From Thermoanaerobaculia bacterium (GTDB lineage: Bacteria > Acidobacteriota > Thermoanaerobaculia > Gp7-AA8): a DNA stretch of 64,000 nt. A program made the translations under genes and the position numbers. Shown piece after piece: positions 28,518 through 63,069 of the stretch. Location: positions 67-64,066 of the forward strand of contig DATELQ010000052.1 in the NCBI GenBank assembly GCA_035276475.1. Direction: 5' to 3'. The notes below the pieces were generated by a model. That model was not told where the DNA came from and made no database searches. It saw nothing but the letters and a program-made list of their open reading frames with translations. The number at the start of each line of letters is the position of its first letter. Position 1 is the stretch's first letter.

Positions 28518-28548
28518 GGCTAGCGATCGGATGAATCCCATCCCGGAA

Positions 28549-28737
28549 CACTTAAAAGTGCTCCGGCGGCACATAAATCTTATCCCGGGTCAGATTTATG
28601 TGATCGCCGAGCATTTAAATGTGCTCCCGGAACACAAAAAAGTGATCCGCCGGCACATAAATCCGAGAGCGGATCACATTTATGTGCCGCGGGATCACTT
28701 AAATGTGATCCATGGACACTTAAAAGTGATCCCACCA
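28549..28737. repeat. array of nine exactly phased 21-bp units, each with an AT-rich 12-bp core CAC-W6-GTG (half-sites in units 2+3 and 6+7) separated by 9-bp GC-rich spacers
   Basis: The cores start at 28549, 28570, 28591, 28612, 28633, 28654, 28675, 28696 and 28717. They read cacttaaaagtg, cacataaat, atttatgtg, catttaaatgtg, cacaaaaaagtg, cacataaat, cacatttatgtg, cacttaaatgtg and cacttaaaagtg. Units 2+3 and 6+7 form extended palindromes (cacataaat ... atttatgtg). The in-frame translation gives a 7-aa periodic peptide but uses tta, ata, aaa and aat codons that are implausible in this GC-rich genome. Confidence 0.85.
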
Positions 28738-42724: not shown

Positions 42725-43363
42725 ATGCTCACCGTTGTGATTCCGGCGCTGAACGAGGAGGAGCGCGTCGCCGCCGCCGTCCGCTCCGCGTTCGAGGCCG
42801 GAGCGTCCGAGGTGATCGTGGTCGATGGCGGGTCGAGCGACGCGACAGTCGAGCGCGCGCGCGACGCCGGCGCCCGCGTGCTCCTCGGCGAGCGGATGCG
42901 CGCGAAGCAGCTCAACCTCGGCGCACGTGCCGCTGCGAACGACACGATCATTTTTCTGCACGCTGATACGCTCCTGCCGAATGGCGCGTGCGCGGCGGTT
43001 CTGGCGTCGGGCGCGCCCTTCGGCGGCTTTCGCATCGCCTTCGCCGAGCGCTCGCTGCGCCTCCGCTACGTCGCGTTCATGATCAACCTGCGGACGCGGA
43101 TCACGCGGCAGCCGTGGGGCGATCAGGCACAGTTCGTCGACCGCCGCGCCTTCCCCGGCTTCCGCGAGATCCCGATCATGGAGGACTACGACCTCGCGCG
43201 ACGGATGAAGCGCGGCGTCATCCTGCCGCTGACCGTCATCACCTCCGGCCGCCGCTTTCTGCAGAAAGGCGTGGTCCGAACGTCGTTCATCAACTGGACG
43301 ACGATCCTCCGCTACCACCTCGGCGCTGACGTCGACGCACTCGCCCGCCGCTATCGCAAGTAA
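42725..43363 (+). CDS. family 2 glycosyltransferase-like protein
   Basis: 'MLTVVIPALNEEERVAAAVRS...VIVVDGGSSDATVERA' is a GT-A/GT2 N-terminal fold with a DxD-like 'LHADTLL'. Length is 212 aa. It is divergent from mobA. Confidence 0.65.
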   Translation: MLTVVIPALNEEERVAAAVRSAFEAGASEVIVVDGGSSDATVERARDAGARVLLGERMRAKQLNLGARAAANDTIIFLHADTLLPNGACAAVLASGAPFGGFRIAFAERSLRLRYVAFMINLRTRITRQPWGDQAQFVDRRAFPGFREIPIMEDYDLARRMKRGVILPLTVITSGRRFLQKGVVRTSFINWTTILRYHLGADVDALARRYRK

Positions 43364-43806
43364 TTGAGGATCGCGCTGATCTCGAATCCCTGCCGCTGCA
43401 GCCGCGCCGCGATCTTGTCGCGGTCGGCGCCGAAGCGGTGGGAGAGCTTCTCGTACGCGGCGCGCAGCCGCTCCTCTTCGCCGTCGCCGTGCTCGCGAAT
43501 GGCCCGCTCCGCCGCGTCGTCCGAAACGCCGGCGTTGCGCAGCTCGCCGCGGATGCGCAGCCGTCCGATACCCTTCCGCACGCGCGTCCGCACATACGCC
43601 CCGGCGAAGCGGTCGTCATCGAGCCACTTCTCCTCGCGCAGCCGCGCCAGCGTCGCCGCGACCGTCGCGTCATCGAACTTCTTCGCCGCCAACTTCCGGC
43701 GCAGCTCCGCCTCGGAATTGAAGCGGTAGTTCAGGATGCGGAGGGCCACCGCGTAGCAAGTAGATGGGGTCAGGTCTTCACTTTTCACTTTCTTATTTGT
43801 AGCCAT
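43351..43806 (-). CDS. recX: RecA regulator RecX
   Basis: 'YAVALRILNYRFNSEAELRRKLAAKKF...' and the three-helix repeat organisation are typical of RecX. The ATG at 43806 lies in the loop of a 32-bp perfect inverted repeat. Confidence 0.7.
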   Translation of the reverse strand: MATNKKVKSEDLTPSTCYAVALRILNYRFNSEAELRRKLAAKKFDDATVAATLARLREEKWLDDDRFAGAYVRTRVRKGIGRLRIRGELRNAGVSDDAAERAIREHGDGEEERLRAAYEKLSHRFGADRDKIAARLQRQGFEISAILNYLR

Positions 43807-43856
43807 GCCGTGCGAGTTACTCCGAATAAGAAAGTGAAAAGTGAAGACCTGACCCC
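43766..43856. repeat. perfect 32-bp inverted repeat (arms 43766-43797 and 43825-43856, 27-nt loop) enclosing the recX start codon
   Basis: The left arm is 'ggggtcaggtcttcacttttcactttcttatt'. The right arm is 'aataagaaagtgaaaagtgaagacctgacccc', its exact reverse complement. The loop 'tgtagccatgccgtgcgagttactccg' contains the recX ATG (complement) and a GGAG. The right arm ends 4 nt before the pilT stop. Confidence 0.85.
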
Positions 43857-43859
43857 AAT

Positions 43860-45038
43860 CTACAGCGAGTTGCCGAAGTCGAACGGCGAGTCGTCGGAGA
43901 ACGGATCGCTCGAGTCGCTGGCGACGGAGAGCTTCGACTCCATCTCCTCTCGGGACATATCCGAGGTCGACTGGATGCCTTGCAGCTTGAGGCGGAACTC
44001 GTCGGGGTTCGAGGCGCGGCGCAGTGCTTCGTCGAGCGTGATCAGGCCGTTCTTGTAGAGCATGTAGAGCGACTGATCGAACGTCTGCATGCCGTACTGC
44101 GACGTCCCCTGCGAGATCGCGTCCTTGATCAGCTTCGTCTTTTCCTTGTTCTCGATGCAGTCGCGAATGTACGCGGTCGAGATCAGCACCTCGCACGCGG
44201 GCACGCGGCCGAGGCCGTCGGCGCGCGGGAGAAGGCGCAGCGAGACGACCGCTTTGAGCACCGCGGCGAGCTGCAGGCGGATCTGCTTCTGCTGGTGCGG
44301 CGGGAAGACGGAGATGATGCGGTTGATCGTCTCCGTCGCGTCCATCGTGTGCAGCGTGGAGAGCACCAGATGCCCGGTCTCCGCGGCCGTGAGCGCCGTC
44401 TCGATCGTCTCATAGTCGCGCATCTCGCCGACGAGGATGACGTCCGGGTCCTGGCGCAAGGCGCTGCGCAGCGCCTGCGAGAACGACTTCGTGTCGACCT
44501 CGATCTCGCGCTGGTTCACGATCGACTTCTTGTCGCGGTGAAGGAACTCGATCGGGTCCTCGACCGTCATGATGTGCTCGGTGCGGTGGGCGTTGATGTA
44601 GTCGATCATCGCCGCCAGCGTCGTCGACTTGCCGGAGCCGGTCGTGCCGGTGCAGAGAATGAGGCCGCGGCGCTCGTCGGCGATCTTCTCCAGGACGATC
44701 GGCAGCATGAGCTCGCGGATGGAGAGGATCTTGACCGGGATGACGCGGAGGACCATGCCGACGGTGCCGCGCTGCTGGAAGATGTTGCAGCGGAAGCGGC
44801 CCAGGCCAGGGACCGAGTAGGCGATGTCGATCTCGTAGTTGTTCTTGAACTTCTCCTTCTGCCGCGAGGACATGATGGAGAAGGCCATAGCGATCGTGTC
44901 CTCCTGCATGAGCCGCTTGAGCTCCACCAGCGGCACGAGCTCGCCGTCGACGCGGATGACCGGATGCGACCCGACTTTGATGTGCAGGTCCGACGCGCGG
45001 CGCTCGGCGGCGATCTTCAGGAGGTCGTTGATGTGCAT
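43860..45038 (-). CDS. pilT: type IV pilus twitching-motility ATPase
   Basis: 'MHINDLLKIAAERRASDLHI', Walker A 'GTTGSGKSTTLAAM', and 'TVEDPIEF' and 'ILVGEMRD' boxes are present. Length is 392 aa. Confidence 0.9.
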   Translation of the reverse strand: MHINDLLKIAAERRASDLHIKVGSHPVIRVDGELVPLVELKRLMQEDTIAMAFSIMSSRQKEKFKNNYEIDIAYSVPGLGRFRCNIFQQRGTVGMVLRVIPVKILSIRELMLPIVLEKIADERRGLILCTGTTGSGKSTTLAAMIDYINAHRTEHIMTVEDPIEFLHRDKKSIVNQREIEVDTKSFSQALRSALRQDPDVILVGEMRDYETIETALTAAETGHLVLSTLHTMDATETINRIISVFPPHQQKQIRLQLAAVLKAVVSLRLLPRADGLGRVPACEVLISTAYIRDCIENKEKTKLIKDAISQGTSQYGMQTFDQSLYMLYKNGLITLDEALRRASNPDEFRLKLQGIQSTSDMSREEMESKLSVASDSSDPFSDDSPFDFGNSL

Positions 45039-62968: not shown

Positions 62969-63069
62969 TCCCGCGCGCAGACGCGGGATCAGCCGATGCA
63001 CCGCGGCAGCTCGTAGGCTATAGCATCGCGGTGGATCAGCTGATCCCGCGTCTTTCGCGCGGGATAAAC
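62969..63069. terminator. nested inverted-repeat structure between convergent genes
   Basis: 'tttatcccgcgcgcagacgcgggatcagc' at 62969-62997 and 'gctgatcccgcgtctttcgcgcgggataaa' at 63040-63069 are near-perfect reverse complements. Each arm contains its own 8-bp hairpin (atcccgcg / cgcgggat). An inner 'caccgcg...cgcggtg' repeat is also present. Confidence 0.5.

Follow-up and report, generated by a model that had tools for sequence, protein, structure and literature searches.

How does a perfect palindrome come to lie between two co-oriented genes, with the start codon of the second in its loop? The question is raised by the junction of pilT and recX in a 64,000-nucleotide (nt) stretch of DNA from a Thermoanaerobaculia bacterium (Acidobacteriota; GenBank assembly GCA_035276475.1, contig DATELQ010000052.1, positions 67 to 64,066 of the forward strand). 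We refer to this whole stretch as ‘the window’. Two arms, at 43766–43797 and 43825–43856, are exact reverse complements (32 of 32 positions) on either side of a 27-nt spacer. A first-pass annotation of the window described this hairpin and offered several explanations for it: an attenuator or terminator for pilT–recX, a control element for recX translation, a target for a structure-specific nuclease or recombinase, or a misassembled palindrome. It is a known kind of element, and neither a purpose-built regulator nor an assembly error. With high confidence, we regard it as a dimer of the terminal inverted repeats (TIRs) of a Y1 (HUH) tyrosine-transposase element—a non-autonomous derivative resembling REPINs (hairpin-forming doublets of repetitive extragenic palindromic, or REP, sequences) and miniature inverted-repeat transposable elements (MITEs)—that landed on a gene junction and now supplies recX with its start. 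Related loci used for comparison are numbered with the prefix ‘L’.

The identity of the arms is established by where else they occur. A 1075-nt segment of one related locus, L039:2180–3254, is bounded by the window's exact 32-nt arms in inverted orientation. Its left end has the same sequence as the arm at 43825–43856, as do the left ends of the elements in L067 and L068, and its right end has that of the arm at 43766–43797. Between them is a single open reading frame (ORF) of 315 amino acids (aa), the stop codon of which lies inside the right arm. The encoded protein matches Pfam Y1_Tnp at 40.5 bits (cut-off 23) and contains the motifs NHYH, FQ and YIVLNP. L067/L068 have the same layout, with an enzyme 86% identical and identical arms; L066 has it with an enzyme 75% identical and variant, TGAC-type arms; and L010 has it with an enzyme 37% identical and termini of 22 nt. 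A helix–turn–helix (HTH) appears only in L010, as a sub-threshold match to HTH_23. On a Geobacter contig, an arm is found just upstream of the start of a homologous ORF. The start of the arm, GGGGTCAG, fits the motif GGGGWSAS, and this, together with the three protein motifs, matches the TIRYT or ‘TIRtron’ class (Group-1 REP-associated tyrosine transposases, or RAYTs; TnpAY1 subclass 2.1). A single arm alone folds to 0 kcal/mol and the ends of L039 fold no better than shuffled sequences (z = +1.2 and +0.25), so the element falls outside the classical definitions of REP units and of IS200/IS605 insertion sequences. In identifying the arms as TIRs of a Y1/HUH element, we come nearest to the proposal that the hairpin is a target for a structure-specific nuclease or recombinase; what does not survive of the first-pass interpretation is the notion of a device particular to this locus.

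The enzyme genes themselves occupy a consistent position. In L039 and L067/L068, the Y1 gene is flanked by genes for an NAD-dependent epimerase/dehydratase and for VIT1, and reading of the flanking DNA gives matching epimerase and VIT1 flanks in L066. In L066, the upstream host ORF runs into the left arm and ends at a TGA there. Each Y1 homologue occurs on only one or two contigs, and the gene looks to be low-copy and vertically inherited.

The arms form a dispersed repeat family. Scanned against a collection with a single genome for each species, a 20-mer of the arm matches six contigs of the Thermoanaerobaculia metagenome-assembled genome (MAG) SMAG_U4593 and three of SMAG_U4647. All nine matches are inverted arm pairs: eight span 72–90 nt and enclose 7–25 nt, and one spans 165 nt and encloses about 120 nt. 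The 20-mer also matches MAGs labelled Desulfobacterales, delta proteobacterium, Geobacter and Planctomycetales. The window's sub-type, scanned as a 23-mer reaching into CTTTCTTATT, is present in the soil metagenome Ga0134128 as 12 hairpin copies and one full-length element, and in two other samples as four more hairpin copies, which makes 16 miniature copies in three soil metagenomes. Nine of the 26 matches to the 23-mer, on low-GC (~0.40) contigs without the GGGGTCAGG terminus, were set aside as unrelated. The metagenome hairpins are 74–150 nt long and have identical arms of 32–35 nt around centres that differ and are mostly self-complementary. Thermoanaerobaculia MAGs and soil metagenomes together contain the arms as hairpins of 72–150 nt at more than 25 unrelated sites. 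Within the 64 kb of the window itself, the two arms are the only copies, whether up to three mismatches are allowed or arm variants are searched for as an nhmmer profile; the three-mismatch search finds none in 100 shuffled versions of the window that preserve dinucleotide frequencies.

At least 20 gene ends lie at −1 to 7 nt from an arm; several copies occupy the whole gap between convergent genes, and in some the first G of the element is used in a stop codon. The recX copy is atypical of the family in being positioned on a gene start. Direct repeats of 4 nt or more in the flanks, the mark of target-site duplication, are absent from all 25 independent insertions compared. This absence excludes MITEs of the DDE or Tn3 type and fits the single-strand mechanism of Y1 enzymes. 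The Tn3 family deserves mention because its inverted repeats are about 38 bp long and begin with GGGG, and the arms here can be counted as 38 nt and begin GGGGTC; the hairpin might on this account be a Tn3-family ‘TIME’ or another MITE from a DDE transposon. Tn3-family elements make 5-bp duplications, however, and the full-length elements that we found with these arms all encode Y1/HUH enzymes, none of them a DDE transposase. We consider such an origin highly improbable. For a Y1 enzyme, scattering in very short intergenic gaps without duplication would be the expected outcome of single-strand ‘peel-and-paste’ acting on a DNA hairpin.

Hints of a preferred site come from the DNA beside 68 arms, set against 11-nt stretches of the window taken at random. 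Position −2 is A or T at 61 of the 68 arms. TAG lies within 9 nt of 23 of them (background 2.8%) and GTAG within 9 nt of 14 (background 1.8%), the latter being neither constant nor separable from TAG stop codons; the long ORFs of the window end in TGA (20), TAG (11) and TAA (5). Full-length elements do not have the TAG/GTAG foot. A TAG-containing foot or target is suggested by these figures.

At the pilT–recX junction, transcription runs on the minus strand, and the transcript reads pilT...CTG TAG ATT, 5′ arm, CGGAGTAACTCGCACGGC ATG GCT ACA, 3′ arm, TCT ACT TGC TAC... The 5′ arm (43825–43856) is a non-coding copy of the 32-nt TIR, GGGGTCAGGTCTTCACTTTTCACTTTCTTATT, and is separated by 3 nt from the pilT stop codon, TAG (43860–43862). 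The 3′ arm (43766–43797) is the second TIR copy, the plus-strand letters of which are again GGGGTCAGGTCTTCACTTTTCACTTTCTTATT; the sequence that in L039 carries the transposase stop codon here encodes RecX residues 3–14, TNKKVKSEDLTP. The 27-nt centre, or loop (43798–43824, minus strand), is CGGAGTAACTCGCACGGCATGGCTACA and contains a GGAG at 43824–43821 and the called recX ATG at 43806–43804. Its first part is similar to the sequence just inside the left end of L039 (CGCAGTAAAGCGGG). Centres of the window type are common only to the orthologous pilT–recX copies (L026, L034, L060, L053–58 and L061); copies outside this junction have different centres. Each arm includes a 7-nt unit repeated in tandem, TCACTTT TCACTTT (43778–43791, plus strand), a candidate protein-recognition repeat. 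A repeat search lengthens the arms to 38 nt at 95% identity (43765–43802 and 43820–43857), and folding adds five outer pairs, TAGAT/ATCTA, that include the pilT stop codon: the pilT-side junction (43857–43862, minus strand), TAG at 43862–43860 followed by ATT, pairs with 43760–43765. The two genes are pilT (43860–45038, minus strand), upstream, encoding a type IV pilus retraction ATPase of 392 aa (Pfam T2SSE, 1.4e-45), and recX (43351–43806, minus strand), encoding 151 aa as called, with Pfam RecX_HTH1 and RecX_HTH2 domains. The element is an AT-rich island, with a GC content of about 0.45 against 0.65–0.75 around it, in DNA of ~68% GC.

The RNA fold of the transcript strand has a predicted energy of −70.7 kcal/mol (z = −11.6), and the single-stranded DNA folds to −39.5 kcal/mol (z = −13.1). 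In its description of the structure the first-pass annotation was accurate throughout: the perfect 32-nt arms and 27-nt spacer, the ATG and GGAG in the loop, the coding of RecX residues 3–14, the closeness of the other arm to the pilT stop, the internal tandem and the extreme stability all stand. Its reading of the structure as an attenuator or terminator fares differently. A hairpin of such stability between two co-oriented genes is what a dedicated pilT–recX attenuator or terminator, evolved in place, might look like. Yet a scan between pilT and recX finds no terminator-like site, no U-tract and no promoter-like site; no Rfam family matches at its gathering threshold, the best being generic models of miRNA precursors at 45–50 bits against thresholds of 70–97; and the same arms recur at the many unrelated loci described above and as the ends of transposase elements. 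Close relatives, moreover, have no hairpin here at all, and their stop and start codons overlap instead. A dedicated attenuator or terminator is very unlikely.

Those relatives supply the ‘empty’ form of the site. In L025, a soil contig, the PilT protein is identical to the window's and the DNA is 95.7% identical, and there is no element. Its junction is AAC TCG CTG TGA GCGAC TGC TAC GTC, in which the recX GTG overlaps the pilT stop and the product begins VSDCYVAALRIL. L065 is empty in the same way, the pair reading ...TTG/CTG TGA GCGAC TGCTAC. An identical PilT protein is therefore encoded beside both filled and empty sites. Most RecX homologues start M[A/S/T]DCYVAALRIL, the empty-site form; a minority start with residues encoded by the arm (MATNKKVKSEDLTP..., MSANKKLETEDLTP... 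and VKTEDLTP...). Filled junctions, of the form TAGA(G)/GGGG...CCCC/C TGC TAC, are found in L026, L034, L060, L061, L053–58 and L063. The pilT stop is TAG in all filled alleles (TAGA(G/C/T)) and TGA in the empty ones. In a comparison of orthologous junctions, which the first-pass annotation had proposed, the hairpin is shared by the filled orthologues and absent from L025 and L065, and the idea of a device specific to the pilT–recX junction is contradicted both by these empty sites and by the dispersal of the arms.

Whether the element entered this junction once or repeatedly was approached through a neighbour-joining tree of RecX (130 residues). The filled alleles fall into two clusters, with the empty alleles nested among them. 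Recombination is likely, and one ancient insertion followed by conversion cannot be separated on the tree from repeated insertion. A single insertion is favoured because the junctions are identical in both RecX clusters.

Fold-back chimeras can yield perfect palindromes, so an assembly artefact had to be considered. The filled site is present with both flanks intact in four independent assemblies (ENA ERZ27257058, and JGI 3300037467, Ga0134128 and Ga0673033), which differ at a few positions in the loop and arms, and an insertion recovered four times independently is no artefact. Nor do the AT-rich arms resemble either flank, as copies of neighbouring native sequence would, and the family has many members with different centres. 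Two short contigs do have ends of the kind that misassembly produces: L059:1–35 and L062:1–11 are the reverse complement of the recX 5′ flank, beyond the hairpin. Most likely, the palindrome led to fold-back misassembly at these ends; real as it is, the element can create local artefacts. For the hairpin of the window, the possibility of an artefact, raised by the first-pass annotation, is negligible.

How recX came through the insertion can be pictured as follows. A copy consisting of two 32-nt TIRs of a ~1.07-kb element, joined head to head around a short interior remnant, would have landed on the overlapping pilT stop and recX start (TTGTGAGCGAC) and replaced about 8 nt. The insertion would have given pilT a new TAG stop and destroyed the GTG start of recX, and recX would have survived because the element carries an in-frame start, either the ATG or GTG of the loop or a GTG in the 3′ arm. 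The loop start is ATG in the window, L034, L060 and L053–58, and GTG at the same position in L061. L059, L062 and L063 have a different centre, and the only possible start is the GTG of the 3′ arm, with an in-frame TAA two codons upstream. The window has this in-frame GTG as well, at codon 7 (43786–43788, minus strand). For P0001, a RecX 99% identical, the NCBI annotation begins at the arm GTG and gives 145 aa (MKSEDLTP...), as against 151 aa from the loop ATG. ORFs beginning MKSEDLTP... have also been called from arms at unrelated loci (e.g. L002, L010, L011 and L016), where they are spurious.

About the first 14 codons of recX derive from the element and about two more from the junction, and the native protein resumes at about CYAVALRIL. 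In the element-carrying lineages as a whole, 8–16 extra residues, mostly element-encoded, precede the first RecX domain. Pfam RecX_HTH1 begins at residue 17, and the extra residues thus form an N-terminal tail. The ratio of nonsynonymous to synonymous divergence (dN/dS) of recX is 0.16–0.48 in element-carrying lineages and 0.27 in the filled-versus-empty comparison; the similarity of these values indicates that recX is still in use.

On the mRNA, the element is predicted to fold into a stem of 32–43 bp, with several possible consequences. A GTGA overlap of stop and start is the classic arrangement for translational coupling. The empty alleles overlap in this way and the filled ones are split by the stem, so coupling between pilT and recX would probably be lost. 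The recX start would be sequestered in a loop of 17–27 nt, or in the stem itself, and with the first codons paired, initiation would be hindered and translation lowered. The stem might be cleaved by RNase III, for which perfect RNA duplexes of such length are typical substrates, as has been shown for the hairpins of Neisseria MITEs (De Gregorio et al. 2003, listed in PMC3733652). Termination of pilT could also be disturbed, since the stem begins 3 nt after the stop; in Escherichia coli, a gene is translated less when a REP lies no more than 15 nt from its stop codon (Liang et al. 2015, cited in PMC12306157). With no promoter-like site between the genes, recX is probably still on the pilT transcript. 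A regulatory effect on recX or pilT would follow from any of these; for recX translation it is plausible as a by-product of the insertion, since the native start is lost and its replacement lies in the hairpin.

Such an effect could also have been the reason for the element's retention. The hairpin might be an exapted host regulatory module, kept to set recX expression by holding the start in the apical loop—with control coupled to pilT, to temperature or to RNase III—and/or to stabilise the 3′ end of the pilT mRNA. Several observations accord with this. The element changes far more slowly than synonymous sites of the flanking genes: between the window and L034, where the synonymous divergence (dS) of recX is 0.38, the arms differ at 0 of 64 positions and the loop at 2 of 27; between L053 and L056 (dS 0.19), the element is unchanged over 90 nt; and between L063 and L062 (dS 0.36), it differs at 1 of 86. 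The flanks of the window and L034 are 92% identical over 2088 nt, and with that divergence, no change in 64 nt has a probability of ~0.005. The position of the loop start codon is kept, recX is under purifying selection and probably depends on the pilT transcript, and the effect of E. coli REPs near stop codons provides a precedent. Four observations speak against it. The arms are equally conserved at unrelated loci, which makes conservation a property of the family and not of the junction; the lineage of L059, L062 and L063, with another centre and no start in the loop, still keeps recX; empty alleles persist in close relatives; and where the arms have changed, they track the TIRs of their own lineage's enzyme (L061 and L066), a sign of concerted evolution with that enzyme more than of selection on RNA structure. 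We think exaptation for this purpose unlikely, though it is the most serious of the explanations that compete with a TIR dimer.

The last of these points rests on the way in which the arms change. In L053–58, TCAC has become TCAG in both 7-nt units of both arms, and one T:A pair has become C:G, and the stem is still perfect. In L061, TCAC has become TGAC at all four places, and the diverged enzyme gene in L066 has TIRs of this same TGAC type. When nine distinct arm pairs are aligned, 97.5% of cells pair. Of 35 pairs of positions, 12 have changed on both sides and none on a single side, as against 0–1 in controls in which the partner was shifted by 1–3 columns. Covariation alone is no proof of selection for a hairpin, because two ends recognised by one enzyme would co-vary likewise. 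The coordinated change of the tandem units, which do not pair with each other, and the occurrence of the TGAC variant at L066 favour the view that the enzyme recognises the arms and co-evolves with them, and that copies are homogenised.

The empty and filled sites, the absence of duplications and a TIR variant that tracks its enzyme lineage are indirect signs that a TIRYT may mobilise the repeats. Several findings weigh against a TIR dimer of this kind. The only NCBIfam match of the L039 ORF, to REP-associated tyrosine transposase (REP_Tyr_transpos), scores 65.7 bits, below the curated cut-off of 80. A tblastn search of the 64-kb window with the transposase found no Y1 transposase gene, and the presence and copy number of the cognate enzyme in the source organism are deduced from relatives. 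A filled site is not simply an empty site plus an element: TAGA(N) stands in place of about 8 nt (TGAGCGAC) that held the native recX start, and the recX-side junction varies among the window, L034 and L053. This is not a clean cut-and-paste footprint, and the exact boundaries are uncertain by a few nucleotides. The element is also conserved well above what would be expected of a neutral, selfish remnant, so that host-level function, gene conversion from other copies, or re-insertion must be at work. Mobility and every effect at the level of RNA are, finally, predictions.

A broader proposal can also be made. Conceivably, the TIRYT gene and the TIR-dimer hairpins of Thermoanaerobaculia form vertically inherited, co-evolving replicators of the REPIN–RAYT type, built on Group-1 enzymes, with the hairpins actively kept uniform (hardly varying up to a dS of about 0.4, and with both arms and both 7-nt units switching in step with the enzyme lineage) and serving the host as gene-boundary modules. 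We offer this tentatively. If it is true, the copy described here would give pilT its stop and recX its start, and the −70 kcal/mol stem with that start in its loop would act as a gate on translation. To our knowledge, the literature treats Group-1 enzymes as being without REPIN populations.

Some further members and look-alikes of the family are worth recording. The 22-nt terminus GGGGTCAGGTCTTCACTTTTCA is identical at L005:4127–4186, L008:741–801, L018:1541–1562 and L010:391–1491, in MAGs the labels of which include Desulfobacterales, delta proteobacterium and Geobacter; in L010 and L018 it adjoins homologous Y1 transposase genes. For the terminus to be identical across such MAGs, either it has spread horizontally or the sequence that the enzyme recognises is very strongly constrained. 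L001:5934–6005 and L022:1575–1664 are orthologous copies in two species-level MAGs, with flanks 87% identical. The two elements agree over their first 45 nt; L022 differs by a tandem duplication of 18 nt in its interior (TCTTCAGAGTGTAGAAA) and at a few positions of the 3′ arm. L016:4159–7425, from a Planctomycetales MAG, has a frameshifted tnpA of the IS200 type (NCBIfam transpos_IS200, 94 bits) between degenerate GGGGTCAGGTCTTCA arms, and two hairpin copies lie within 3 kb of it; either the family is also tied to an IS200-type gene, or an insertion sequence has entered a hairpin copy. Among the low-GC (~0.40) contigs, L030, L032, L037, L049, L050, L027, L045 and L047 share an exact 26-nt match, TCTTCACTTTTCACTTTCTTATTCGC, to the inner arm and the first bases inside L039. 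The match stands in a tandem TCTTCACTTTTCA context with no GGGGTCAGG terminus, and represents one locus recurring across related contigs.

The window contains two other repeat structures. At 28541–28735, short hairpin units (CACWTAAAWGTGMTCC) lie in both orientations in an AT-rich intergenic cluster of at least six; with one mismatch allowed, six matches occur within 190 nt, against 0.01 expected. The units nest as imperfect palindromes with arms of up to 83 nt at 72%, and none was found among the 52 related loci compared. The cluster looks like a REP or BIME (bacterial interspersed mosaic element) array of a second repeat family unrelated to the hairpin. At 62979–63053, a GC-rich inverted repeat of 27 nt at 93% (AGACGCGGGATCAGCCGATGCACCGCG and CGCGGTGGATCAGCTGATCCCGCGTCT) encloses a loop of 21 nt, with an additional outer complementary stretch, TTATCCCGCGCG ... 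CGCGCGGGATAA.

What these findings mean is partly practical. In this clade, the start of recX and the first 8–16 residues of its product derive from a transposable element, and annotation pipelines call different starts. The locus is also a natural experiment: in close relatives, recX is either coupled to pilT or split from it by a 32–43-bp hairpin that includes its start, and the effect on this regulator of RecA can be tested. More generally, the poorly studied TIRYT/Group-1 RAYT class is extended to Thermoanaerobaculia, with three behaviours that resemble those of REPINs—the enzyme gene stays at one locus, copies persist at orthologous sites and the arms change in concert. The family also crosses phyla, with a 22-nt terminus common to MAGs labelled Desulfobacterales, delta proteobacterium, Geobacter and Planctomycetales.

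Among known systems, the TIRtrons are the closest. Di Nocera, De Gregorio and Rocco (2013; PMC3733652) introduced ‘TIRYTs’ as RAYT-like genes with long terminal inverted repeats, residing in ‘TIRtrons’. The motif GGGGWSAS is common to many TIRYT TIRs (PMC3733652, PMC6006769); the TIRs form moderately abundant families, often as dimers, and Acidobacteria have a TIRYT group of their own (PMC3733652). For Quentin et al. (2018; PMC6006769), TIRYTs are the same as TnpAY1 subclass 2.1 and as Group 1 of Bertels; the subclass is marked by the motifs NH[YF]H, by FQ or W[EQ], by Y[IV]xLNP, and by a long C-terminal tail that carries an HTH. The 16-mers flanking Group 1 RAYTs have only ~12 copies on average (Bertels et al. 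2017; PMC5581495). The elements described here agree with what these papers report in having a Y1/HUH enzyme of ~315 aa between long TIRs that start GGGGWSAS, in the dispersal of the TIRs, mostly as inverted dimers, and in the enzyme motifs NH[YF]H, FQ and Y..LNP. A literature search for motif strings returned neither this TIR sequence nor a Thermoanaerobaculia host. In the passages of the TIRtron papers that we consulted, we also found no description of persistence at orthologous sites, of co-change of both arms and both 7-nt units, of arms abutting stop codons, or of a copy that supplies a gene with its start codon.

REPIN–RAYT systems (Bertels and Rainey 2011, PMC3116915; Nunvar et al. 2010) are similar in other ways, as far as those accounts describe them. 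An inverted doublet makes a long hairpin, which is non-autonomous and partnered by a Y1 gene present in few copies, with the repeat on either side of it; that gene occupies a fixed chromosomal site in related lineages, copies are kept at orthologous positions, and there is no target-site duplication. Unlike the units of REPINs, the single arm here is not palindromic, and a 5′ GTAG accompanies only 14 of the 68 arms; the copies seen number tens and not hundreds, and the enzyme looks to be a member of Group 1 and of neither Group 2 nor Group 3. Classical REP units, imperfect palindromes with a conserved 5′ GTAG, were rejected as a description on account of the arm's 0 kcal/mol and the same low frequency of GTAG. 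IS200/IS605 elements, which have subterminal hairpins, no TIRs and a TnpA of ~150 aa, were rejected in view of the unstructured ends, the inverted repeats and the 315-aa enzyme.

Two further kinds of element, both with references in PMC3733652, resemble the hairpin in form or in effect. The Correia/NEMIS elements of Neisseria and the ERIC elements of Yersinia are likewise palindromes of 70–150 nt beside coding regions; they are co-transcribed, their long RNA stems are possible substrates of RNase III, and they can alter expression of the neighbouring gene. They derive from, or are presumed to rely on, transposases of the DDE type and they have target duplications, whereas the pilT–recX element has none. 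The Rickettsia palindromic elements (RPEs) parallel what has happened to recX, in that a palindrome adds in-frame codons and the protein stays functional. RPEs lie inside the ORF, have a CGTC tag and have no known transposase; the pilT–recX element lies at the extreme 5′ end of its gene and replaces the start codon.

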